Positions 4,216-38,015 of a stretch of 61,816 nucleotides of DNA are shown one piece after another; the first letter of the stretch is position 1, and every line of letters begins with the position of its first letter. The DNA comes from a virus (lineage: Duplodnaviria > Heunggongvirae > Uroviricota > Caudoviricetes), in IMG/VR virus record IMGVR_UViG_2740892042_000003; one strand, written 5' to 3'. The position numbers and the translations under genes are program-made. Under the pieces are notes generated by a model. It was given only the letters and a program-made list of their open reading frames with translations. It did not search any database and had not been told where the DNA came from.

Positions 4216-4512
4216 TTATACCTCTGAATCAATATCAACCTGGTGGCGGGCAATAGTTTCAACCATGTACCGGATGTGTTCTGCCATGCGTTCCTGAAAC
4301 TCAACATCGTCATCAAACGCACGGGTAATGGCTTTTTTGCTGGCCCCGTGGCGTTGCAAATGATCGATGCATAGCGATTCAAACAGGTGCTGGGGCAGGC
4401 CTTTTTCCATGTCGTCTGCCAGTTCTGCCTCTTTCTCTTCACGGGCGATCTGCTGGTAGTGACGCGCCCAGCTCTGAGCCTCAAGACGATCCTGAATGTA
4501 ATAAGCGTTCAT
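4216..4512 (-). CDS. gam: Gam (RecBCD inhibitor), short form
   Basis: 98 aa matching the C-terminal 98 residues of lambda Gam ([21 protein letters not shown]...). Confidence 0.9.
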
Positions 4513-16870: not shown

Positions 16871-17830
16871 ATGATAAAAAAACCTGTGATTGGAATCAGC
16901 GGTTGTTTGGCCGGTTCTGCTGTTCGTTTTGATGGTGGTCACAAAAGAGCTGACTTTTTAATGGACAAATTAGTGGAATGGGTAACATTCAGACCAGTAT
17001 GTCCGGAAATGGCTATAGGGCTGCCAGTTCCGCGTCCTGCTCTACGTCTTGTGCGCTCGACGCAAGGAAATATACGGATGTGTTTCAGCCACGACCAGAA
17101 TGAGGATGTGACAGAGAGAATGACAGAGTTTAGTCGTTCTTATATGGACAAATTAAAGGATGTATCGGGGTTTGTGGTTTGTGCTAAATCTCCCAGCTGT
17201 GGCATGGAGCGCGTGCGTGTCTATGATGAAAATGGTAATCGAGGTCGTAAAGATGGAGTGGGACTATTTACGAGCACTTTGATGGAAAAGTTTTCCTGGC
17301 TACCGGTTGAAGAGGATGGGCGATTACATGATCCAGTGCTTCGTGAGAATTTTGTTGAAAGAGTTTTTGCTTTGCATGAGCTCAATCACCTTTACAAGGA
17401 GAAATTATCAAGAAGAGAGTTATTGGCTTTTCATAGTCGTTATAAGCTTCAGTTGTTGGCGCATAGTCAGACAGGCTATAAAGATATGGGACCATTTGTG
17501 GCTGCAATACACGAGTGGGCGGATCTTGAATCATACTTTGAGGTGTATCGTGATAAGCTGATGGCGATTCTCAGAAAACCTGCATCACGTAAAAATCACA
17601 CGAATGTGCTGATGCATATACAGGGGTATTTTAGTAACTACTTAAGTACACGCCAGCGTAAAGAGTTGAGCGAGGTTATACTTAACTATCGTTCTGGCAC
17701 ATTACCTCTTCTTGCGCCGTTGACTCTGCTGAAGCATTATCTGGGTGAGTATCCTAATGATTACTTGCTTACACAGAATTACTTCGATCCCTATCCGGAC
17801 GAACTGGCTCTAAGACTGATGGTAAATTAA
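16871..17830 (+). CDS. DUF523-DUF1722 fusion protein (TudS/YbgA-like)
   Basis: N-terminal GISGCLAGSAVRFDGGH...CPE...CGMER Cys pattern (DUF523) followed by YbgA-like C-terminal region. Confidence 0.65.
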   Translation: MIKKPVIGISGCLAGSAVRFDGGHKRADFLMDKLVEWVTFRPVCPEMAIGLPVPRPALRLVRSTQGNIRMCFSHDQNEDVTERMTEFSRSYMDKLKDVSGFVVCAKSPSCGMERVRVYDENGNRGRKDGVGLFTSTLMEKFSWLPVEEDGRLHDPVLRENFVERVFALHELNHLYKEKLSRRELLAFHSRYKLQLLAHSQTGYKDMGPFVAAIHEWADLESYFEVYRDKLMAILRKPASRKNHTNVLMHIQGYFSNYLSTRQRKELSEVILNYRSGTLPLLAPLTLLKHYLGEYPNDYLLTQNYFDPYPDELALRLMVN

Positions 17831-22726: not shown

Positions 22727-22760
22727 CAGGTTACGGGGCGGAAGGCGCGCGGGTTTTCGC
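22727..22760. other. helper prophage cos site with divergent cosN
   Basis: flanks match lambda cosQ/cosN/cosB (cgggtcctttccggcgatccgacaggttacgggg ... cgcgggttttcgctatttatgaaaattttccgg) but central 12 nt read gggcggaaggcg instead of lambda gggcggcgacct. Confidence 0.6.
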
Positions 22761-23470: not shown

Positions 23471-26451
<2,981 letters not shown>

Positions 26452-26528
26452 AACCCTTGCTGCGTCTGGAATGTCGTTTTCCATGCTTTTGATGACCGTT
26501 CATCACCCTTCCAGTTTTTCGCGGTTTT

Positions 26529-26581
26529 GTGTATTGCAATGTGTATTGCAAATTGGCGATCGGGATGGGTGTGTATTGCAA
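26529..26581 (+). repeat. integrase arm-type repeats (left end of island)
   Basis: gtgtattgcaa at 26529, 26541, 26571, directly upstream of island int. Confidence 0.55.
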
Positions 26582-26599
26582 ATCTCTTGAGGGCTTTTA

Positions 26600-27841
26600 A
26601 TGGCTATTGAAAACAAACTCAGTGACAAACTGTTAAAGAGTCTTGTCGGAAAACGGCAGGACAAACAAAAAACAATAGCGGATGGGCGCGGGTTGTCTGT
26701 GCGTGTAAGCATGGTTGGGGGGATCAGCTTTGTTTTTTACTATCGTCTTGGTGGCAGGGAATCCCCTCCGGTATGGCTTACACTTGGTCGCTATCCTGAC
26801 ATGTCTCTTGCAACGGCCAGGCGCATGCGTGATCAGTGCCGTGAATGGCTGGCTGAAAATCTGGACCCCCGCAGGCAAATAAAACTTGCTGCCGAAAAAA
26901 CTATGCAACCAGTGACCGTAAGGGATGCGCTGTTTTACTGGTACGACAATCACGCCACAACAGCCAGAAAAGAGCATGAATATTTAATAAAACGATTTGA
27001 AAAGCATATCTTCCCCTATATCGGTGATATGGCTATAGAACAGTGCAAATTACACACATGGCTTACCGTCTTTGACAGGATCAAAAAAAATGCGCCTGTT
27101 ATGTCTGGTGCAATTTTTCTTGATATCAAACAGGCGTTGCGTTTTTGTCGCGTCAGGCAATACATCGCGTGCGATCCCTTTGGAGATATTAACGTAAGTT
27201 ATGTCGGGCGCTCATCCGGTATAAGGGATCGCGTTCTTAATATCAATGAAACCGCTGATGTATGGTCTTATGCTTACGGTAATAATTTGCTAACTCTGTC
27301 ATCAATATATAACCGAAGAATAATGGTTATCTGCCTGGTGTTTGGTTGCCGACAGCAGGAGGCGAGGCTATCCACCTGGGACGAATGGGATTTAAAAAAC
27401 TGGGTATGGACAGTCCCAAAAGAGCACAGCAAAAACAAGGAGGCTATAGTAAGGCCTGTTCCTGACGGAATAAAACAATGGATCGTTAATCTTTACGCAG
27501 AAACAAAAAATCGCGGTTATGTTGTCGGTTGTGCTTTGCAAAGGGCGACAATAACAGGGGCTGCAAACAGAATATGCAGGCGTCTTGGTCATGATACTAA
27601 TGGCTTGTGGTGCATACATGATTTCAGGCGCACATTTTCCACTACGCTTAATGATATGGGGGCGGATCCTTATATTGTCGAACTTCTTTTAGGTCATAAA
27701 GTGAAAGGGGTTGCTGGTGTTTACAATAAAAGCAGGCATATAAAGAAAAAACTTGAGGTGCTTAATATGTGGGTTAATTACCTTAATACGATAGCAGGAT
27801 TTAACAACAACGTTATCGAGCTTAATAAAGAGGTGGTGTGA
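26600..27841 (+). CDS. tyrosine integrase (P4/PICI-type)
   Basis: 413 aa; C-terminal HDFRRTFSTTL...LLGHK...GVAGVY catalytic region. Confidence 0.9.
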   Translation: MAIENKLSDKLLKSLVGKRQDKQKTIADGRGLSVRVSMVGGISFVFYYRLGGRESPPVWLTLGRYPDMSLATARRMRDQCREWLAENLDPRRQIKLAAEKTMQPVTVRDALFYWYDNHATTARKEHEYLIKRFEKHIFPYIGDMAIEQCKLHTWLTVFDRIKKNAPVMSGAIFLDIKQALRFCRVRQYIACDPFGDINVSYVGRSSGIRDRVLNINETADVWSYAYGNNLLTLSSIYNRRIMVICLVFGCRQQEARLSTWDEWDLKNWVWTVPKEHSKNKEAIVRPVPDGIKQWIVNLYAETKNRGYVVGCALQRATITGAANRICRRLGHDTNGLWCIHDFRRTFSTTLNDMGADPYIVELLLGHKVKGVAGVYNKSRHIKKKLEVLNMWVNYLNTIAGFNNNVIELNKEVV

Positions 27842-27842
27842 T

Positions 27843-28100
27843 ATGGCAATTTATTCTCTTGTTGATGAAAACGATTTGCGCACAATGAAGGACATTGATC
27901 GGTTCATTCGTGAAAAAGAGTGCATAGCACTTACCACGCTGGCAAACTCAACACGCTGGAAAATGGAGCAGGCAGGTAAATTCCCGCGACGTATCAAGAT
28001 CGGTGAACGTGCTGCAGGGTATCGACTTTCAGAGGTTCAGGCATGGATCCGTGGTGAGTGGCATCCTGGATGGAAACCTGGAAAAACAAAACAGCAATAA
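27843..28100 (+). CDS. AlpA-family regulator/excisionase
   Basis: 85 aa; directly after int; AlpA-like HTH region. Confidence 0.7.
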   Translation: MAIYSLVDENDLRTMKDIDRFIREKECIALTTLANSTRWKMEQAGKFPRRIKIGERAAGYRLSEVQAWIRGEWHPGWKPGKTKQQ

Positions 28101-28156
28101 CCAGTAAATAATGCCCCTCATCACGAGGGGTTTTTTGTCTATAAGGTAAAAACGCG

Positions 28157-28735
28157 ATGAATAAAAATATTGCCGTGACGGGCAAGGGGTACGCTCGTCC
28201 AGTGAAAAAATTCTGCGATATTCGTGATCTCGTCGTTCTGCGCTTTGATAGTGTGAACGTTCGTGTGGTGTATCTGAACGGCGATCCGTGGTTTGTTGCA
28301 AAAGATGTTTGTGCTGCGCTGGAACTAACCAATTCGCGTACGGCGTTGCAGATGCTTGATGATGATGAAAAGGGAGTAAATTTAACTTACACCCCAGGAG
28401 GAAATCAGAATATGAGAATTATCTCTGAGTCAGGTTTCTACAAACTAATAGCCCGCAGCCGCAAAGCAACGACGCCTGGCACATTTGCTCATCGTTTCAG
28501 TAACTGGGTATTCAGAAATGTGATACCAGGTATCAGAAAAACGGGGACTTATGGTATCCCGTGGGGTGCATTACAGGATTTTTCCCGCCGTAAAGAGCAA
28601 TATCAAATAAGTGCCAGCGAGAAGGGGAGGGAGCTACAGGCATGTAAGCGCAAAAAGCGTGAGCTGGAGGAAGAAGAAAAAACGCTGATACGTGAATATC
28701 AGCCTGAGTTTTACTTTGGTAACCGCATTCAGTGA
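28157..28735 (+). CDS. Bro-N domain antirepressor-like protein
   Basis: VVYLNGDPWFVAKDVCAALEL... Bro-N signature. Confidence 0.7.
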   Translation: MNKNIAVTGKGYARPVKKFCDIRDLVVLRFDSVNVRVVYLNGDPWFVAKDVCAALELTNSRTALQMLDDDEKGVNLTYTPGGNQNMRIISESGFYKLIARSRKATTPGTFAHRFSNWVFRNVIPGIRKTGTYGIPWGALQDFSRRKEQYQISASEKGRELQACKRKKRELEEEEKTLIREYQPEFYFGNRIQ

Positions 28736-29068
28736 CAAAACAAAGGCGACCGCAAAAGGGTCGCCAGTGGGAACAAGGGAAAACAAAAGCATCACCAACA
28801 ATGCCACATTTGCGGCTGGTGGGCAATGTGATCAGTCAGATTTGGTTCGTTCCAAGGTTTGCAACGAGAGCTTTTTCCTGTGCTCTTTAAGGAATTTCTC
28901 AAGAGCAAACGAACAAGGTGCGAATCTTTCTGATTCATGTTCATGCGCTATATTTTTGCGTCGCCTCTTACGAGTTGGTGATGGTGTTTTGGTTGATTCT
29001 GTGTCGCTCATGGTGCTGTCCTGTAAAGCAATGCGCCTGCGTTCCTCAAACTATGGCGCTGATATTGG

Positions 29069-29374
29069 CTATTCATGCTCTTTGACCTTGCGTCGCTGGA
29101 GTTCTTCACGCGCGACGGTGACGAGTTGCCCGATCTCCTCGGCTGCTTTGATGCCGATTTGTTCGACCTTAGCCAGGGCATCCAGTGACGACACAAGGGG
29201 ATTTTCTCCGCTGCCTTCTGCTTGGCGGCGGGCTATTTCTCCGCGCATGGCGGTTACGATAAATCCGGCATTGCTTTCACCGTCCAGCTTAACGGATTCC
29301 ATCCCTTGCATAACATCTAGTGGGACTCTGACAGTTGTCAGTTGTGATTTTGCGTTTTTGTTAGCCGTTGCCAT
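29069..29374 (-). CDS. putative ribbon-helix-helix repressor
   Basis: 101 aa; N-terminal QLTTVRVPLDVMQGME beta-strand/helix pattern; divergent from promoter/operator at 29436-29473. Confidence 0.45.
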   Translation of the reverse strand: MATANKNAKSQLTTVRVPLDVMQGMESVKLDGESNAGFIVTAMRGEIARRQAEGSGENPLVSSLDALAKVEQIGIKAAEEIGQLVTVAREELQRRKVKEHE

Positions 29375-29435
29375 TTCTGAAACTCCTAATCATCGGTGTG
29401 TTTCAGTATACACAAAAAAAGAAATACAAAAAGCC

Positions 29436-29473
29436 TTGACGTGTGTTTCATGCGCTCATAACATGAAACACAC
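29436..29473 (+). promoter_or_regulatory. sigma70-like promoter overlapped by a 12-bp perfect inverted-repeat operator
   Basis: ttgacg-17 nt-taacat; inverted repeat gtgtgtttcatg (29441-29452) / catgaaacacac (29462-29473). Confidence 0.5.
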
Positions 29474-29564
29474 CGAAAGGATTGTTGAAATACAAAGAGC
29501 AACGCCCCGCAGTGCTGGGAACACATACGGGGCGTCTAACCAACAACGTAAACTAGGAGCCGTT

Positions 29565-29762
29565 ATGGTTGCTGTAAATCATATACCACACCTTGTACAC
29601 ACACAAACGGCCTTTGTGTGGCGTTTTCTGGCACTGAGTGCCGGAGAATCTCAAATCATCCACGTAACCGCCTGGACGGAACGCGAAGCGCGTAGCCGTT
29701 GCCCGTCCGGTTGTGTTGCTGTATTCGCTGCAAAAATCCGCCAGGGAGTGAGTCATGCTTAA
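29565..29762 (+). CDS. small Icd-like protein (host cell-division inhibitor family)
   Basis: 65 aa MVAVNHIPHLVHTQTAFVWRF..., AGGAG RBS; pattern of P4-type Icd-like proteins. Confidence 0.5.
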   Translation: MVAVNHIPHLVHTQTAFVWRFLALSAGESQIIHVTAWTEREARSRCPSGCVAVFAAKIRQGVSHA

Positions 29763-29940
29763 AACCTTCCGTGTATTTGCCCGAGCTGTTAACCCAATAG
29801 GCCACACAATTGGTATCGCTCAGAATGTGAAGGCTGTTAATGTTCAGACGGCTATTGCTGCGGTGAGAAGCGAATCATCAGAATATGGCTTATCACAAGT
29901 CATTATTTCAGCAGTGTATGAATTAAAAGAGGTGCATTAA
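29755..29940 (+). CDS. hypothetical protein
   Basis: 61-aa ORF in island early operon. Confidence 0.3.
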   Translation: MLKTFRVFARAVNPIGHTIGIAQNVKAVNVQTAIAAVRSESSEYGLSQVIISAVYELKEVH

Positions 29941-30131
29941 TGCAGGAAATTACATTACACGAAGCCGCTGAACGTGCGCACCAGACAGAAATTATTTGCC
30001 GCCTTCTTGAGGTATACCCGAACAAAATTACAGATGCTGATATATCCGCACTGGCGAGCCTACTGGCGCGTCTTTCGGGAAGTGTCGCTAGTTTTTTGAT
30101 TGAGGAAGAAAGTAAGCTGGTGGGGGATTAA
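29940..30131 (+). CDS. hypothetical protein
   Basis: 63-aa ORF, tightly packed in operon. Confidence 0.3.
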   Translation: MQEITLHEAAERAHQTEIICRLLEVYPNKITDADISALASLLARLSGSVASFLIEEESKLVGD

Positions 30132-30353
30132 ATGAATACAGAACGGGAAGTCTTTTTTAAATTGTTAGCATGTGCAGAAAGTTCATTAACTTTAAATAAT
30201 TCAGCAAAAGCAATATTAAATATGTGGCTTGATTGCATAAATGACAATGAAGATGCAAATATTGCTTATGGCCTGTTGTCACTTATTGATGAATCAGCAG
30301 AAAAACTCAATGACGCAATAAATAGTGCCCTGCTATCAAATAAGTCGAGTTAA
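30132..30353 (+). CDS. hypothetical protein
   Basis: 73-aa ORF, AT-rich codon usage unlike neighbours. Confidence 0.3.
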   Translation: MNTEREVFFKLLACAESSLTLNNSAKAILNMWLDCINDNEDANIAYGLLSLIDESAEKLNDAINSALLSNKSS

Positions 30354-30370
30354 GTCGAGGAATAAATAAT

Positions 30371-30670
30371 ATGGAAATGAAAAATTCTGGCTTTATTGCT
30401 AGCGGCCCCGCTCGACCTGAATTTATGAACGGCGATATTTACCGCGATAAATACGGCGGCACGGTAACGATTAAAGGCGTGGCAGAACGGCGCATCACTT
30501 ACCGCCGTGAGGGGTATAGCTATGACTGCGTGATGCCTGTTTATCAGTTCCGGCGTGATTTTTCCCTGGTATATGCCGCACCCCGCAGTAAGCCCATCAG
30601 CAGGGAAAAAGCGTGGGGAAATATCCAGAAAATGAAAACCATGATTAACGGATTCAGAGGTAAAAAATGA
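30371..30670 (+). CDS. hypothetical protein
   Basis: 99-aa ORF overlapping primase start. Confidence 0.4.
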   Translation: MEMKNSGFIASGPARPEFMNGDIYRDKYGGTVTIKGVAERRITYRREGYSYDCVMPVYQFRRDFSLVYAAPRSKPISREKAWGNIQKMKTMINGFRGKK

Positions 30671-32418
30671 AACTGGCACCGAACTTAAAAAAACAGCCAC
30701 GCGACAGACTGACAGAGATAATCATCTTTGCAGGTAGTGATGCGTGGAGCCATGCGAAAGAGTGGCAGGAATGGGCGGGTAAACATATTGCCGCCGACGA
30801 TGTGCCGCCTGTCGTGTTGGCTGATGAGCAACTGAAAAACATCACCGATTACCGGATCATTGATGAAGATCGTCAGTGTGTGCGTGTTTACCGCGCAGGA
30901 CATATCACAGAGCACAGCATGACGCAGATTGTTACGTTACTGGCTGTGGCTGGAGTGAAGACCGTACACGAATACGCGGGGATTACTGACACCAGCCCAG
31001 TGGATTTATCCGACCAGTTGCCGCGACTCAAAGAGGAATGCGAGCGTGGGGAAAGCCTGGTGCTTAATCTTCCGACGAAGCAAAAGGCGCAACTTTCACA
31101 GATGGCAGACAGTGAGCGCGCGCAGCTGCTTGCCGAGCGCTTTGATGGCGTTTGTGTGCATCCGGAAAGTGAAATCGTTCACGTATGGCGCGGCGGGGTA
31201 TGGTGTCCGATCAGCACAATGGAGCTGAGCCGCGAAATGGTGGCGATCTATTCAGAGCACAGGGCCACTTTCAGCAAACGCGTGATCAATAACGCCGTTG
31301 AAGCGTTAAAAGTTATTGCCGAACCAATGGGCGAGCCGTCCGGCGATTTGCTGCCGTTCGCCAATGGTGCGCTTGACCTGAAAACGGGGGAATTTTCCCC
31401 GCACACGCCGGAGAACTGGATCACCACGCACAACGGCATTGAGTACACGCCACCAGCACCAGGGGAGAACATCCGCGATAACGCGCCAAACTTTCATAAA
31501 TGGCTTGAGCACGCAGCCGGAAAAGACCCGCGCAAGATGATGCGTATATGTGCCGCGCTGTACATGATTATGGCGAACCGGTACGACTGGCAGATGTTCA
31601 TTGAGGCCACCGGAGACGGGGGAAGCGGTAAGAGTACATTTACCCATATTGCCACCCTGCTTGCTGGCAAACAGAACACCGTAAGCGCAGAGATGACATC
31701 ACTCGATGATGCAGGAGGGCGCGCGCAGGTTGTCGGGAGTCGTCTTATCGTCCTTGCCGATCAGCCGAAATATACGGGGGAAGGCACGGGCATCAAGAAA
31801 ATCACGGGAGGCGATCCCGTTGAAATCAACCCGAAATATGAGAAGCGATTCACGACGATAATAAGGGCGGTGGTACTGGCAACCAATAACGACCCGATGA
31901 TCTTTACCGAACGGGCCGGAGGTGTGTCACGCCGTCGGGTGATTTTCCGGTTCGACAACATTGTAAGGGAGGACGAAAAAGACAAGGAATTACCGGAAAA
32001 GATAGCGGCAGAAATCCCCGTAATTATCCGCCGCTTGCTGGCTAATTTTGCTGACCCTGAAAAGGCACGGGCTTTATTACTGGAACAGCGTGACGGTGAT
32101 GAAGCTCTGGCAATAAAGCAGCAAACGGATCCGGTTGTTGAGCTTTGCGCGGCGCTGGAGTTTCTGGAGGAAGCTCGTGGGCTAATGATGGGCGGTGGTG
32201 GTGACACCGTGAAGTACACGACCAGAAACAGCCTTTACCGTGTCTATATGGCCTTCATGGCATATACAGGAAAGGGGAAATGTTTGAGCGTGAATGAGTT
32301 CGGAAAGGCTATGAGGTCAGCGGCGAAAGTTTACGGATATGAATATATTACGCGAAAAGTTAAGGGAGTCACGCAGACCAACGCAACGACTACTGATGAT
32401 TGCGATGCGTTTTTATAA
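30667..32418 (+). CDS. primase-helicase (P4 alpha/PICI Pri-Rep-like)
   Basis: 583 aa; Walker A GDGGSGKST and D5/P4-type helicase region. Confidence 0.85.
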   Translation: MKLAPNLKKQPRDRLTEIIIFAGSDAWSHAKEWQEWAGKHIAADDVPPVVLADEQLKNITDYRIIDEDRQCVRVYRAGHITEHSMTQIVTLLAVAGVKTVHEYAGITDTSPVDLSDQLPRLKEECERGESLVLNLPTKQKAQLSQMADSERAQLLAERFDGVCVHPESEIVHVWRGGVWCPISTMELSREMVAIYSEHRATFSKRVINNAVEALKVIAEPMGEPSGDLLPFANGALDLKTGEFSPHTPENWITTHNGIEYTPPAPGENIRDNAPNFHKWLEHAAGKDPRKMMRICAALYMIMANRYDWQMFIEATGDGGSGKSTFTHIATLLAGKQNTVSAEMTSLDDAGGRAQVVGSRLIVLADQPKYTGEGTGIKKITGGDPVEINPKYEKRFTTIIRAVVLATNNDPMIFTERAGGVSRRRVIFRFDNIVREDEKDKELPEKIAAEIPVIIRRLLANFADPEKARALLLEQRDGDEALAIKQQTDPVVELCAALEFLEEARGLMMGGGGDTVKYTTRNSLYRVYMAFMAYTGKGKCLSVNEFGKAMRSAAKVYGYEYITRKVKGVTQTNATTTDDCDAFL

Positions 32419-32434
32419 AAAATGGCAATGGTTA

Positions 32435-32670
32435 TCTACCTTGTCTACCTGACTGAAATAAAATACTTTTATTTCAATGTATTAATGCAGGTAGATAACT
32501 ATTTTTCACTGTCTACCTGTTATCTACCTTATCTACCCATTTTTGTAGACAGGTAAGGAGACGGGTAGAGATGAGGTAGACAGCTATTTGGGGCTGTCTA
32601 CCTCCCTGAAACCCGCGCCATTACTGGCCTGATAACTAATCAAGTAGACAAGGTAGACAAGGTGGTGGTG
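32435..32670. repeat. island replication origin iterons
   Basis: more than 12 copies of gtctacc / ggtagac in both orientations immediately 3' of the primase gene. Confidence 0.65.
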
Positions 32671-32707
32671 CACAAAAAACTTTTTAAACGAGGGGGTAAA
32701 AATAAAA

Positions 32708-32965
32708 ATGCACACATCAGGAAAACTGAACAAACATATAAAGCCACATTACCGCGCCCTTGATATGGCTGAACACTGGCTAAGGGTGGCGATTAAGGCA
32801 ATAGACCGCAACGCCGGGGAAGGATACGCGAAAGCACATCCCGAACTGATAAGCGCATTCATGACAACGGCGGCTGCAAACTTTGCCACGCTGACCGAAC
32901 GGGAGATTGCCGAAGCGGAACAGGTGACAACCATCAATGTTAAAACCGGAGAGCAGACAGCATGA
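32708..32965 (+). CDS. hypothetical protein
   Basis: 85-aa ORF overlapping ssb start. Confidence 0.35.
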   Translation: MHTSGKLNKHIKPHYRALDMAEHWLRVAIKAIDRNAGEGYAKAHPELISAFMTTAAANFATLTEREIAEAEQVTTINVKTGEQTA

Positions 32966-33384
32966 CAGCACAGATAGCGGCTTACGGGCGGCTGGTGGCT
33001 GACCCGCAGTTAAAGACCACCAGCAAAGGGACACAAATGGCGATGGCGAGTATGGCGGTTCCCCTGCCGTGCAGCCAGGCAGATGACGGAACGGCGACGA
33101 TGTGGTTATCCGTCCTGGCGTTTGGCAGACAGGCCGACGCACTGGCAAAACACCACAAAGGCGAACTGGTGAGCGTGGCGGGTAACATGCAGGTAAGCCA
33201 GTGGACAGGCCAGAACGGCGAAACGCGGCGGGGCTGGCAGGTTATCGCAGACAGCGTAATCAGTGCGCGAACGGCGCGACCGGGCGGCAAAAAAGGCCAG
33301 CAGGGGCAGGCCACTGACGCACTGAACAGGGCAAAACAACAGTCGGGGAATGATGATCCGTACGGCGATAATATACCGTTTTAA
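32962..33384 (+). CDS. ssb: single-stranded DNA-binding protein
   Basis: 140 aa; OB-fold N-terminus, Gly/Gln-rich linker and C-terminal ...DDPYGDNIPF tail. Confidence 0.8.
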   Translation: MTAQIAAYGRLVADPQLKTTSKGTQMAMASMAVPLPCSQADDGTATMWLSVLAFGRQADALAKHHKGELVSVAGNMQVSQWTGQNGETRRGWQVIADSVISARTARPGGKKGQQGQATDALNRAKQQSGNDDPYGDNIPF

Positions 33385-33595
33385 ATTCTGCAAACAAAAA
33401 GATGCCGGAAAAAAATAGATTTTCCGGCATGCTACATAAATCCCGACCAAAGGAAGTAAATACATTAACACGAATTATCAGCACTGAAGTTGTTACGGCA
33501 TATTTTATACAACATTGCACTTGGTTGCATGTATTCGCATAGCAGACATCGGTAATAGAATATATTCACAATTATTTGTAATGAATGTAAAGAGG

Positions 33596-34643
33596 ATGAG
33601 TATGGTTGATTTATATTCGCCTACACAGCTTGTGCAGGTGGCTAATGCTGAAGATGTGCAAAAAAAAATTAAATGCGTTGTTTACCAGTTTGTTTTTCAC
33701 TCGCTCGGTAATGTTTGAATCGAGAGACATTATTCTTGATACGATCGACGATCCAAATATCCCGATCGCGGCGTTTTGCTCTCCTATGGTGGGCAGTAAA
33801 GTTTCACGAGATGAGGGATACGAATCAAAAACAATTCGTCCAGGTTATATGAAGCCGAAAAGCAGCATTGATCCAAATAAGTTAGCTGTGCGCCCTGCTG
33901 GTGTGTCACCTGAGCAATACAATGCTTTTGGGGCGCGTAATATTAAAGTTAAACAGGCGATTGTAAATCAGGCTAAAGCTATTCGTGCACGTATTGAATG
34001 GCTTGCTGTTCAGGCAATCACAACGGGGAAAAATATCATTGAGGGCGATGGTATTGAACGTTATGAGCTGGACTGGAATATAAAACCACAAAATATCATC
34101 ACTCAGTCTGGCGGTACTGAGTGGTCAGGTAAGGATAAAGAAACTTTTGATCCAAATGATGATATTGAGAGCTACGCAGAATTTAGTGAGGGCGTCACTA
34201 ATATCATCATTATGGGTGGTAATGTATGGAAGAAATACCGTTCATTCAGAGCGATAAAAGAGGCTTTGGATACCCGTCGTGGTTCTAATTCCGAACTGGA
34301 AACGGCCCTTAAAGACCTTGGTGATTCGGTGAGTTTTAAAGGGTATATGGGCGATGTTGCGATTGTTGTTTACAGCGGGCGTTATACCGACGAGGACGGA
34401 ACAGAAAAACATTTCCTTGATCCTGATTTGATGGTGCTTGGCAATACGGCTCTTCAGGGGATTGTCGCCTATGGCGGTATTCAGGATCCGGAGCTAATCC
34501 GAATGGGGCTGACTAAAGCCGAACTTGCACCGAAAAACTATATTGTGCCTGGTGATCCGGCTATTGAATATGTGCAGACACATTCAGCACCACAGCCAAT
34601 ACCGGCCCGCATCAATCGTTTTGTTACCGTTCGCATTGGCTAA
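33596..34643 (+). CDS. gpE-like major capsid protein, frameshifted at an A9 tract
   Basis: AAGAGG RBS and ATG at 33596; MSMVDLYSPTQLVQVANAEDVQKK aligns with lambda E N-terminus, then homology continues in +1 frame after A9 run 33660-33668 (LNALFTSLFFTRS... to end); about 40 percent similar to prophage E. Confidence 0.75.
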
Positions 34644-34652
34644 GGGGGAGCA

Positions 34653-34994
34653 ATGGCTACTCATTACACTGAACTCATGGCTGGCACTGAAGCACTGGTG
34701 ACTACGCTGGGGATATTTTCAGCTAATAAAGGGGTAATTCCTGCATTTACGCCACTGATGCAGGAAGATGCAACAGGTGCACTGGTGGTATGGGATGGTT
34801 CGAGCGTAGGTAAAGCGGTTTATGTTTCCGCTGTACAAATCGACACAGCGAAAAAAACACAGGCACAGGTTTATAAGACAGGTGTTTTAAATGTTGATGC
34901 TCTGAACTGGCCTGAGTCTGTAAAAGAACTGTCGGCAAAGGTTGCCGCGTTTGTTGGCTCAGGTATTTCTGTTCAGCCGCTGGCTCGTGTGTAA
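34653..34994 (+). CDS. gpD-like head decoration protein
   Basis: 113 aa; TPLMQEDATGALVVWDGSS aligns with lambda [21 protein letters not shown]. Confidence 0.7.
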   Translation: MATHYTELMAGTEALVTTLGIFSANKGVIPAFTPLMQEDATGALVVWDGSSVGKAVYVSAVQIDTAKKTQAQVYKTGVLNVDALNWPESVKELSAKVAAFVGSGISVQPLARV

Positions 34995-35005
34995 AGGGGG
35001 ATACA

Positions 35006-35389
35006 ATGCAGAATCATTACAATGACCTTAAGCCAATTGCCGAAATGATGTATCCGGATCCAGCAGTAGAGGAATTAAAGGCTATTGCTGACAAAATGCG
35101 TTTAAGTGAACGCCTTGTTGATATGAATCAGGTGATGGAACTTACTACCCTTAGCCGTCGCACATTGCTAAACCTTGAGGCTCGCGGAGAGTTCCCCGAA
35201 CGCGTACAGGTTACGGAAGGGCGTAAGGCCTGGTATTTAAGTGAAGTGATCGACTGGATAAACAATATTCCTCGATCTTCTGAATATTGCCGCGTACCTG
35301 TCCCAAAAAAGCCAGATGCGGCGCTATGCCTCAAGATTGAGCGTGTACGTCGCAATGCACGGGATGGTCGCTATAAGTTGATTGGTTGA
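35006..35389 (+). CDS. AlpA-family transcriptional regulator
   Basis: ELTTLSRRTLLNLEARGEFPERVQVTEGRKAWYLSEVIDWI AlpA-type HTH. Confidence 0.6.
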   Translation: MQNHYNDLKPIAEMMYPDPAVEELKAIADKMRLSERLVDMNQVMELTTLSRRTLLNLEARGEFPERVQVTEGRKAWYLSEVIDWINNIPRSSEYCRVPVPKKPDAALCLKIERVRRNARDGRYKLIG

Positions 35390-35445
35390 TGAAATTAGGG
35401 CCCGTTCTGGCTGGCGGGTCCTTTCCGGCGATCCGGTAGGCTACG

Positions 35446-35479
35446 GGGCGGCGACCTCGCGGGTTTTCGCTATTTATGA
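35446..35479. other. island cos site with lambda-identical cosN
   Basis: gggcggcgacctcgcgggttttcgctatttatga, preceded by cosQ-like cgggtcctttccggcgatccggtagg. Confidence 0.65.
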
Positions 35480-35590
35480 GCCTTTTTCGGGTGCTGGTGG
35501 TGGTTTTGTTGCTCGCTCTATCTCTATGAATAAAAAGGAAAAGATAAAGCCAATACACCAACCTGAAACATTACTTAAGTGGGGATATTG

Positions 35591-36133
35591 ATGAAATCGC
35601 ACCTGATGAACAAAAAAAACATGGCGCAAAGCTGCCGTGTAAGTGCGACAGCGTTCGACAAGTGGGGAGTGACTCCCGTTGAACGTAAAGGCCGCGAGGC
35701 GTTTTATGATGTTGCCAGCGTAATAGACAATCGGGTTAGCAATGCAATTAACCAGATTACAGACGACAAAGGCGAGATTGATGATGATGAACTCCTACGA
35801 GTCAGGATCAGATTGCTGACAGCACAGGCAGAGGCGCAGGAGCTTAAAAACGAGCGCGAACGCGGCGACGTTATTGATACAGCGTTTTGTATATACGTGC
35901 TTTCAAAATTGGCGAGTCAGATTTCTTCAATCATGGACAGCCTGCCGCTTGCCATGACAAGGAAGTTTCCCGACATGAAGCCGTCTATGCTGGATGGACT
36001 GAAAAAAGAAGTTATCAGAGCCTGTAACGCATGCGCAAAACTTGACGAAAACATACCGCTGATGCTGTCCGATTATCTGATGGAAACTGCCGGAAACGTA
36101 CCGGATAAGTTGCAGCCGAATAAAGATAAGTAA
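35591..36133 (+). CDS. Nu1-like terminase small subunit
   Basis: aligns with lambda Nu1 (NKKQ...; ELKN...VIDTAFCIYVLSKLASQISSIMDSLPLAMTRKFPDM vs ELKNAKESAEVVETAFCTFVLSRIAREISSILDGIPLSVQRRFPEL). Confidence 0.7.
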   Translation: MKSHLMNKKNMAQSCRVSATAFDKWGVTPVERKGREAFYDVASVIDNRVSNAINQITDDKGEIDDDELLRVRIRLLTAQAEAQELKNERERGDVIDTAFCIYVLSKLASQISSIMDSLPLAMTRKFPDMKPSMLDGLKKEVIRACNACAKLDENIPLMLSDYLMETAGNVPDKLQPNKDK

Positions 36134-36144
36134 CGTAGTACGCT

Positions 36145-36426
36145 ATGACTGAATCCGAAATACTGCGATTAATCCGCCGTGCTTGTGGAATCAGCAAGCA
36201 GCATGACGAACAGGCCACGCAGCCGGACAGCGTGACCGCAGATAATTATGTGCGTGTAGTGGCTGAGGTGATGCGCCGTGACGGTATTGAGCTTAACGGC
36301 GTGGATATGCGCAACATACGAACAAGAGTCCTTGAGTTGCTGGCATATCGTCGCCGTTCTCAACAACGGAGGGAGAGCGCGAAAAATACTTACCAGTGGA
36401 AGAAGCCGGAACGATTGCGGCGGTAA
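36145..36426 (+). CDS. hypothetical Arg-rich protein
   Basis: 93-aa ORF directly after island terS. Confidence 0.35.
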   Translation: MTESEILRLIRRACGISKQHDEQATQPDSVTADNYVRVVAEVMRRDGIELNGVDMRNIRTRVLELLAYRRRSQQRRESAKNTYQWKKPERLRR

Positions 36427-36680
36427 CTTGCTGATATTCCCGATAACGCAAAATTGCGCTGGCTGACTTGTTGCATTGCAAAAAGTTAAGCAGGAAGGCA
36501 CGGCCTGTAAGATGGGATGCAGTAAGTAGTTCAAGGCTACCTTGTGCTGGCACGCACAGTTAAGCCGTCGGTGCTGGATATCCCCCACTGGGGGAAAAGC
36601 TGGCTACATCCCTCACATCTGAGGACTGATAACGCGACATTGCGCTGGCTGGCAAAGTGCAAAATTGCACGATGGCCTAA

Positions 36681-36817
36681 CCCATTGATTATTTCGAAAA
36701 CCTGCAATGCAGGAAATCGGGGAAGTAAGCCTAAGCTATTGATTGTTTCGAAAACCCCCATTGGGGGATGTCGGGAAAGTAAGACTAACCCATTGATTCT
36801 TCCACAATCCTCAATTT
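36681..36817 (+). repeat. three direct repeats near island right end (candidate TerS/cosB-like binding sites)
   Basis: cccattgattatttcgaaaacc, gctattgattgtttcgaaaacc, cccattgattcttccacaatcc, each near a G5/C5 hairpin. Confidence 0.45.
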
Positions 36818-37140
36818 GAGGAGGCCGGAACGTCTACATAGCTGCATCGCCGTAATGATGATTCAGCCCACCAGTCAAATCAGCACAGCAACGACAGAAT
36901 AGCCCGACACAGAAAAACCACGAATATGGGGTTTTTGTTATGACATGGTCATGATGACCACTCATACAAAACAGGTAAAGCCCACCAGCCTGATTAAAGG
37001 TTAACCGGAAAAAAGCCAGGTATCCAATCTCGATATGGGGATCCCTATATCGACATTAACGCCCACTAAAACTGTGCATATATGCATAGAAAAAGCATCC
37101 ACCAGCTTTATGACGGATGCCGCTCATCTTATAAATAATC

Positions 37141-37162
37141 GTGTATTGCAGTGTGTATTGCG
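37141..37162 (+). repeat. integrase arm-type repeats (right end of island)
   Basis: gtgtattgca gtgtgtattgcg, same motif as left-arm repeats. Confidence 0.55.
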
Positions 37163-37235
37163 ACTCCTTTAAACGATAGGTCTGAGCATTCGTAATGTAC
37201 TGTTTTTAAATTTTATTTTTTCCTGTCTTTTCATA

Positions 37236-38015
37236 AAGGCGATGTATGCCGCCACCATTGAGAGTGAGCTGGATACGCAGTCAGCGATGGATTTTATTCT
37301 GGGCGCGAACAGTAAGGAGCAGCGGGACAAGCTGACCGGCTGGATTGGTGAAATTGCCGCGTATTACGCCGCAGCACCGGTCCGTCTGGGAGGCGCAAAA
37401 GTGCCGCACCTGATGCCGGGGGACTCACTGAACCTGCAGACGGCTCAGGACACGGATAACGGCTACTCCGTGTTTGAGCAGTCACTGCTGCGGTATATCG
37501 CTGCCGGACTGGGTGTCTCGTATGAGCAGCTTTCCCGGAATTACGCCCAGATGAGCTACTCCACGGCACGGGCCAGCGCGAACGAGTCGTGGGCGCACTT
37601 TATGGGGCGGCGAAAATTCGTCGCATCCCGTCAGGCGAGCCAGATGTTTCTGTGCTGGCTGGAAGAGGCCATCGCCCGCCGCGTGGTGACGTTACCTTCA
37701 AAAGCGCGCTTCAGTTTTCAGGAAGCCCGCAGTGCCTGGGGGAACTGCGACTGGATAGGCTCCGGTCGTATGGCCATCGATGGTCTGAAAGAAGTTCAGG
37801 AAGCGGTGATGCTGATAGAAGCCGGGCTGAGTACCTACGAGAAAGAGTGTGCAAAACGCGGCGATGACTATCAGGAAATTTTTGCCCAGCAGGTCCGTGA
37901 AACGATGGAGCGTCGTGCAGCCGGTCTTAAACCACCCGCCTGGGCGGCTGCGGCATTTGAATCCGGGCTGCGACAATCAACAGAGGAGGAGAAGAGTGAC
38001 AGCAGAGCTGCGTAA
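37236..38015 (+). pseudogene. B: portal protein B, C-terminal 257 codons
   Basis: MYAATIESELDTQSAMDF... matches lambda gpB residues 277-533; 276 + 257 = 533. Confidence 0.85.

Follow-up and report, generated by a model that had tools for sequence, protein, structure and literature searches.

Doubled repeats at both ends of a helper-embedded PICI in a lambdoid prophage portal gene as probable arm-type sites of the island integrase

The attP of phage lambda carries the arm-type sites P1, P2 and P'1-P'3, and lambda Int binds both arm-type and core sites. Arm repeats in the attP of the satellite P4 were reportedly described by Pierson and Kahn in 1987. The closest described system is that of the helper-embedded PICIs (HE-PICIs), for which Tommasini, Mageeney & Williams (2023; NAR Genom Bioinform 5:lqad036; PMC10111431) described the motif tgTGTATTGCantgTGTATTGCa, present in two co-oriented copies per attP, one 81+/-2 bp upstream and the other 132+/-2 bp downstream of the attP centre. 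These authors counted four half-sites, called the motif unique to HE-PICIs and left undecided whether it is bound by the arm domain of Int, by AlpA or by another protein. In genomic-island integrases the DUF4102 domain is annotated as arm-binding. A further system is KplE1 (CPS-53) with its integrase IntS, where, according to Panis et al. (2010, PMC2951348), int lies beside attL with arm-type sites between core and int ATG, an arrangement which gives autoregulation of Int.

The window, i.e. the whole analysed stretch of 61,816 nucleotides, carries an island at 26392-37248 (10,844 bp) whose insertion at the core AAGGCGAT has interrupted a lambda-like portal gene. The features needed for the comparison are the following.

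25570-26404, plus strand: 5' fragment of helper-prophage gene B, a lambda-like portal gene split by the island (ORF list, RefSeq label)
26392-26404, plus strand: attL core AAGGCGATTTATG (alignment of attL, attR and two intact attB)
26529-26538, plus strand: Int-proximal (P') candidate arm-type repeat, copy 1, GTGTATTGCA, exact 10-mer
26541-26550, plus strand: Int-proximal (P') candidate arm-type repeat, copy 2, exact GTGTATTGCA, 12 bp after copy 1
26571-26580, plus strand: Int-proximal candidate arm-type repeat, copy 3, exact GTGTATTGCA, a singlet 30 bp after copy 2
26600-27841, plus strand: island tyrosine integrase (Int), 413 aa, with N-terminal Arm-DNA-bind_3 (Pfam PF13356, E=3e-17; PF00589, E=1.7e-14)
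27843-28100, plus strand: AlpA-family small DNA-binding protein (Pfam PF05930, E=5e-14)
37141-37150, plus strand: far (P) arm candidate repeat, copy 1, GTGTATTGCA, exact 10-mer
37153-37162, plus strand: far (P) arm candidate repeat, copy 2, GTGTATTGCG, 12 bp after far copy 1
37236-37248, plus strand: attR core AAGGCGATGTATG (alignment of attL, attR and two intact attB)
37249-38015, plus strand: 3' part of the interrupted portal gene (ORF list, RefSeq, frame restoration)

The 5' portal ORF continues past the junction into island DNA up to a stop at 26451, and RefSeq labels this part 'phage portal protein, missing C-terminus' in a genome of 99.9% identity. Joining 26404 to 37249 gives an open portal frame again (...IVKAIYAATIESELD...), and the rejoined junction aligns over its full length, at 95-99% identity, with uninterrupted portal genes in 80 lambda-like phage records. 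The four-sequence alignment which defined the att cores also gives attB as TTGTGAAGGCGATGTATGCCGCC. The attL/attR identity block is AAGGCGAT (26392-26399), and the T/G difference between the att cores places strand exchange within it. The same block, 'aaggcgat', is listed in the supplement of PMC10111431 for the site group B_Phage_portal_2_241, and the island is accordingly an HE-PICI of the published group B:Phage_portal_2:241. The preliminary description had taken the repeats as backing for the island boundaries, and in this it was right: rejoining the junctions restores the portal frame, and the repeats lie at the published positions around the core. A search for the IHF consensus WATCAANNNNTTR with up to one mismatch gave no hit in the reconstructed 350-bp attP, and the island had no match in Rfam at E<=0.1.

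The gene content is that of a PICI (int, alpA, Bro-N, primase, capsid E-like, D-like and Nu1-like genes); the element lies inside a helper late gene (portal B) in the same orientation as that gene, and its integrase falls in the HE-PICI clade. Besides its N-terminal domain Int has a central and a catalytic domain, and its residues 11-103 match the solved N-terminal integrase fragments PDB 3JU0 and 3JTZ (E ~3e-7). The AlpA-family protein is a probable excisionase or regulator. Further genes encode an Icd-like protein, a D5/P4-type primase, an SSB, a second AlpA-like protein, homologues of the lambda capsid protein E and decoration protein D, and a Nu1-like small terminase. Probable origin repeats of the GGTAGACA type are found at 32427-32660, and the cos site at 35446-35457. 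At least 80% of the island is present in 53 complete E. coli genomes, and in all three of those inspected it occupies the same portal site.

Matches to the doubled tgTGTATTGCantgTGTATTGCa are located at 26527-26551 and 37139-37163, both co-oriented with int. Their distances, ~78.5 bp before and ~134.5 bp after the core, were measured between the edges of the 8-mers and the middle of the identity block and are consistent with the published values, whose reference points are not stated. Sequence, two co-oriented doublets, distances, element type and site group are thus all those of the published system. The doubled motif at the island ends is a feature already known for HE-PICIs and, as it was published for exactly this family, there is nothing new in the motif itself.

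Of the five copies of the 10-mer listed in the preliminary description (26529, 26541, 26571, 37141 and 37153) the first four are exact, while the one at 37153 has a mismatch, ending in G, with its 8-bp core TGTATTGC unbroken. All five share one orientation; measured start to start, the successive int-side copies are 12 and 30 bp apart and the two far copies 12 bp. Dinucleotide-preserving shuffles of the window (n = 100) give an expectation of ~0.18 exact copies of GTGTATTGCA per window. The whole-window search located the clusters at the island ends, as had been described, and also one exact copy that had been overlooked, at 17503-17512 on the minus strand inside the ORF 16871-17830 (DUF1722 / 2-thiouracil-desulfurase). 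Being alone, without a partner and within coding sequence, it is read as chance, and was rejected as a helper-side Int site. The 8-mer TGTATTGC occurs 12 times in the window against 2.7 expected; the att copies account for five, and the other seven stand singly at scattered places, never in a 12-bp tandem, so that the tandem arrangement is confined to the two island ends and a similar density elsewhere, the finding named in advance as refuting, was not observed. An inverted TGTATTGC 8-mer lies inside int at 27157 and is kept in three related islands (L006, L009, L010); it was treated as conservation of the coding sequence.

For comparison, 80 loci from other species were gathered by an integrase profile. 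The islands compared in detail, in order of falling similarity, have an Int of 88% (Edwardsiella), 77% (Serratia, a decayed remnant), 70% (Erwinia), 69% (a metagenome), 55% (Citrobacter, with a different portal type), 54% (E. coli, within the capsid gene E) and 49-53% identity (Kosakonia, Cedecea, Rahnella, Kluyvera and Arsenophonus). The int-side doublet is present in all of them, from 88% down to 49% identity, and its first copy is kept in L006, L007, L009, L011, L012 and L014-L019. The far-side doublet is present in nearly every compared island with its far end within reach (in the corresponding place in L006, L009, L011, L012, L015, L016 and L017), the exception being L062, with one exact and one imperfect copy. 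Conservation is footprint-like: the 8-mers and the 12-bp spacing are kept across islands with an Int of 88%, 77%, 69% and 55-50% identity, and the flanking and intervening DNA is mostly unalignable. Relative to the centre of the core identity block, the far doublet has its end 77-83 bp upstream and the proximal doublet its start 133-137 bp downstream, in agreement with the published distances, and this holds over six cores at five target sites (AAGGCGAT, AAAAGCCAT, ATTAAGGATTAT, AACCCAAGCA, AACCAAA and ATGATGATCCA). Among the 80 loci, none with an Int below 49% identity to that of the window has the TGTATTGC doublet.

Only the portal-241 subgroup has the third int-side copy. It stands 30 bp (start to start) after copy 2, and 20 nt separate the end of its 8-bp core from the int ATG; the same 12/30 spacing is found in E. 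coli, in Edwardsiella (L006), in Serratia (L007/L008) and in metagenomic islands (L009/L010), and in Erwinia (L014) the copy is degenerate, with one mismatch (TGTATTGT). The 18-22 nt between the copies are almost wholly divergent across the portal-241 relatives. Other subgroups have no copy 3, though some show a weaker G[TC]GTTGC[AG] match ~20 bp before the doublet. This conserved fifth site is a small addition to the four published half-sites. A scan of 26350-26700 found neither a sigma-70-like promoter nor an intrinsic terminator. That the stretch from the truncated portal ORF to int has neither agrees with the published view of late transcription of the helper running into the satellite.

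Outside the HE-PICIs the layout persists with other words. Most Int relatives at 35-47% identity have a 12-bp-spaced doublet of their own, usually 20-75 bp before the int ATG and further out, at ~130-145 bp, in L024 and L045. The words are clade-specific, among them GTGTATCAC, GGTGTATCAC, TGTATAAACA, GTGTAGTC, GGTGTAGTC, GTGGGGTA, GGTGTGTAGCA, GGGGTACAT, GTGTGTCACAT, GTGCAGTCAG and GTGCGCTACA. For most non-HE loci the 10-kb flank stops short of the far end; where this end was in reach a matching, co-oriented far-arm doublet was found (L028, L029, L069, L078, L088 and the E. coli IAI39 cf-PICI), and, L028 excluded, the far and proximal distances are 73-82 and 131-140 bp. Three of these loci (L029, L069 and L078) have one core in common, TTCATGCCGTATT, which we take as the published fis site, and carry different arm words, and in the HE-PICIs the arm word is common and the cores differ. 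Arm and core specificities are therefore uncoupled, as expected of an integrase with separate arm-reading and core-reading domains. Site number on the int side ranges from two to four in the P4/PICI integrase family, given three tandem copies in L051 and L060, four in L071, and the count in P4.

P4 itself (NC_001609) has co-oriented doublets of 12-bp units, annotated as 'attP arm sequence repeat', on both sides of its core, as in the window; 15 bp separate its int-side doublet from the int ATG, and the integrase is of the same domain type. It differs in its word (TGGGGGCAT against TGTATTGC), in the distances (63.5 and 122.5 bp against ~78 and ~135), in an Int only 22% identical to that of the window, in a tRNA gene as target instead of a phage gene, and in the extra arm copy at the start of int, which is inverted in P4 and co-oriented in the window. 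The HE-PICI motif is thus, on these comparisons, one variant of an arm architecture found across the P4 family and not a layout of HE-PICIs only.

Within the HE-PICIs AlpA is 44-78% and the Int N-domain 60-89% identical, about equally conserved, and this clade alone cannot separate the two proteins as readers of the word. More informative, as far as sequence alone can go, are natural chimeras, such as the pair L045 (Proteus mirabilis) and L051 (P. columbae), with 91% DNA identity through the core up to the doublet. Their Int proteins are 97% identical from about codon 58 on (also 97% for residues 101 to the end) and their AlpA proteins 98% identical, and they differ in Int residues 1-57 and in the doublet, GTGGGGTAC versus TGTATAAACA. 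Arm words are also different in L074/L076 (Int from residue 101 to the end 92%, AlpA 98% identical), L030/L058 (50% and 100%) and L024/L031 (60% and 98%). In these four pairs, with AlpA 98-100% identical, the word does not follow the identity of AlpA, the likely directionality factor. The switch of word in the chimeric pairs was seen at the proximal arm, the far arm lying outside the fetched DNA. Over all pairs of the 80 loci, with 13 motif classes, segment identity predicted a common motif best for Int 1-58 (AUC 0.95-0.97), followed by Int 59-100 (0.82-0.87), AlpA (0.85) and Int 101 to the end (0.77-0.79), values which are descriptive only, as locus pairs are phylogenetically non-independent. 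The word thus co-varies with the arm-binding domain of Int and not with other proteins or domains, the proximal arm being linked to the 5' end of int; since this arm is directly upstream of the codons for Int 1-58, joint exchange by simple linkage is possible. Taken together, the comparisons favour the Int N-terminus over AlpA as reader of the word.

The five TGTATTGC copies are best explained as arm-type Int-binding sites in the attP of an HE-PICI integrated in a lambdoid prophage portal gene, a reading to which we give a probability of about 85%. The word is distinct from the core AAGGCGAT, occurs on both attP arms (three copies on the int side, two on the far side), keeps a fixed distance from the crossover site whatever the core sequence, and has a cognate integrase with an N-terminal arm-binding domain. 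The preliminary description had proposed the same function, and position relative to att, the arm domain of Int and the tracking of Int 1-58 by the word all point the same way. The sequences establish where the sites lie, how they are spaced, that relatives keep them and that they co-vary with the N-terminus of Int; that Int binds them, how many N-domains do so, how the DNA bends and what AlpA and copy 3 do are inferred as follows. The excised circle would carry, in order, the P-arm doublet, ~78 bp, the core CATAAAGGCGATTTATG with exchange within AAGGCGAT, ~135 bp, the P'-arm doublet, 30 bp (start to start), the third copy, 20 nt and the int ATG. Int would read two kinds of site, the arm word by its first ~58 residues (the start of Arm-DNA-bind_3) and the core by its central and catalytic domains, and each 12-bp-spaced doublet would hold two N-domains side by side. 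With the DNA bent, an Int tetramer would bridge arms and cores, and the assembly so formed would insert the satellite into the portal gene and, with AlpA as likely directionality factor, excise it. Copy 3, beside the int ribosome-binding site, may be an extra P' site like lambda P'3 or a site for autoregulation by Int.

It is conceivable that the repeats are instead sites of AlpA, oligomerising on direct repeats and bending the arms or activating int-alpA. The alpA gene directly follows int, its product is well conserved within the HE-PICIs (the 44-78% given above), AlpA was among the candidates of the authors of the motif (PMC10111431), and directionality factors are described, in PMC7498355, as typically binding direct repeats about one helical turn apart. 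Against this stand the four pairs with near-identical AlpA and different words, and at least ten loci with a clear doublet that gave no tblastn match to the AlpA of the window within ~10 kb, although a divergent homologue could escape such a search. Moreover the repeats occupy both arms, and P4 annotates the same layout as attP arm repeats. Xis-like factors are not known to have sites on both arms. We consider binding by AlpA improbable. Slightly less probable still is that the int-side copies are merely a promoter or operator of int, with TTGCAA as a -35-like hexamer, and the far-side copies incidental. These copies do lie 20-70 bp upstream of the int ATG, and PMC2951348 describes arm-type sites of KplE1 and P4 which overlap the int promoter and through which Int represses it; in P4, Int does so by binding the DNA directly, at comparable positions (Piazzolla et al. 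2006, cited there). The scan of 26350-26700 found no promoter of the sigma-70 type, and the far doublet has no gene to regulate, yet it keeps its distance to the core in nearly every relative with a reachable far end. Regulation is in any case an added role and no true alternative, being compatible with Int arm sites and, in P4 and KplE1, derived from them. The negligible remainder falls to chance repeats, replication iterons or packaging signals. Short words do repeat by chance, as the seven other scattered copies of the 8-mer illustrate, but none of the 100 shuffles reached five copies of the 10-mer, and the origin repeats and the cos site are different sequences elsewhere in the island; conservation and geometry refute this explanation.

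With the copies read as Int arm-type sites, the locus resembles lambda in having arm words unrelated to the core, two far and three int-side sites and a spacing of about one helical turn. It differs from lambda in the word itself, in an arm-binding domain that belongs to another family (the DUF4102 type, which has an additional strand and helix) and in having no detectable IHF consensus site in attP. It shares with KplE1 the place of int and of the int-side sites, but IntS is 23% identical to the Int of the window, its arm sites share a TAAA motif with no obvious likeness to TGTATTGC, and intS has a clear sigma-70 promoter, which the int region of the window lacks. IntS/KplE1 of E. coli K-12 was therefore rejected as a close comparator and retained as an architectural analogy only.

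The general picture of tyrosine integrases binding arm and core sites is unchanged by these data. What is added is that the Int N-terminus is favoured over AlpA as reader of the word, that the architecture is recognised across the P4 family, and that a fifth site is conserved. For the genome at hand, the satellite is identified as a helper-embedded PICI, the portal gene of the helper is blocked until excision, and the repeats confirm the island ends independently and precisely. A wider proposal, which taken as a whole we hold at slightly below even odds, is that in the P4/PICI integrase family the arm word and the first ~58 int codons form an exchangeable cassette, an 'arm code' independent of the core-binding and catalytic part; that HE-PICIs kept the TGTATTGC cassette as their cores were redirected to 14 late-gene sites in prophages; and that the third site of the portal subgroup may allow Int to hold down its own synthesis from late read-through transcription of the helper, thereby timing excision. 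The rule suggested is that the first ~58 residues of Int go with a word of 8-10 bp. If confirmed, such a residue-word rule would serve the prediction of att sites for P4/PICI-type islands and the design of orthogonal integrases.

Judged from its sequence, the island, a PICI satellite of the helper-embedded kind (HE-PICI), has a lambda-type cos site of its own. This site and further sequence features of the window are as follows.

Sequence features in the island, and the helper counterpart of cos
26490-26505, palindrome TGATGAccgtTCATCA, about 25 bp upstream of the int-side doublet of arm repeats
32427-32660, clustered GGTAGACA/TCTACCT repeats in both direct and inverted orientation, immediately 3' of the primase gene
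35446-35457, lambda-type island cos, GGGCGGCGACCT, identical to the cohesive-end sequence of lambda
36675-36836, three tandem units of 54 nt, with one hairpin per unit
22735-22750, counterpart of cos in the helper prophage, GGGCGGAAGGCG

The island cos lies approximately 130 bp 5' of the gene (35579-36133) for the Nu1-like small terminase of the island, and the helper counterpart is found at the equivalent place upstream of the helper's own Nu1. The island cos is embedded in about 75 bp homologous to the helper cos region. The cohesive-end bases differ between island and helper at 6 of 12 positions.

The repeat cluster next to the primase gene is probably the replication origin of the island. 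The 54-nt units follow the final ORF of the island and precede its far att arm (37141-37162); their hairpin stems vary from unit to unit (CCTGCAATGCAGG, CCCCCATTGGGGG and CCTCAATTTGAGG) with self-complementarity kept. Directly 5' of these units are further small palindromes (36442-36671), and neither stretch of this hairpin region had a match in Rfam.

The palindrome close to the int-side doublet is conserved, with an altered spacer, in Edwardsiella, Serratia and metagenomic relatives, and other HE-PICI subgroups carry a different palindrome at a similar position. Candidates for binding there are AlpA, a small DNA-binding protein of the island, or a host bending protein. The attP core, when rebuilt from 37232-37248 and 26400-26404, is itself a near-perfect palindrome (CATAAA-GGCGA-TTTATG), and related islands with other cores also retain the CAT and ATG-like flanks. 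The palindromic core and the retained flanks would fit core-type Int sites in inverted arrangement.

In many non-HE relatives a conserved element, ATGAACT(G/A)A, follows the arm doublet and precedes the start codon of int (loci L024, L029, L032, L034, L038, L041, L045, L047, L050, L055 and L080, with two copies in L045). A Zobellella island (L076) has a P-arm-like doublet upstream of the attL core, at about 4265-4290 and some 80 bp 5' of the fis-type core, the two units of which each resemble a different arm class (GTGTGCTACGT and GGGGTATCACGT). This arrangement suggests a tandem or remnant island together with a mixed arm.

The helper prophage of the window is mosaic when compared to NZ_CP120567.1 (strain A0 34/86), the host of a 99.9%-matching island. 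The window has a DUF1722/2-thiouracil-desulfurase ORF (16871-17830) some 5 kb 5' of the terminase genes, whereas A0 34/86 has lambdoid Q-region genes in this place. The helper of A0 34/86 is integrated at icd, as is the published model helper.

At 33606-34994 and 35579-36133 the satellite has E-like capsid, D-like decoration and Nu1-like small terminase homologues, and these match the type of the helper in which it is embedded. In the comparison with loci L011 and L012, the Citrobacter relative is found in a different phage type and has, in place of these genes, homologues of the ClpP-capsid fusion and the DUF1441 terminase of that phage. Late-gene capture as a general point has already been described (PMC10111431).
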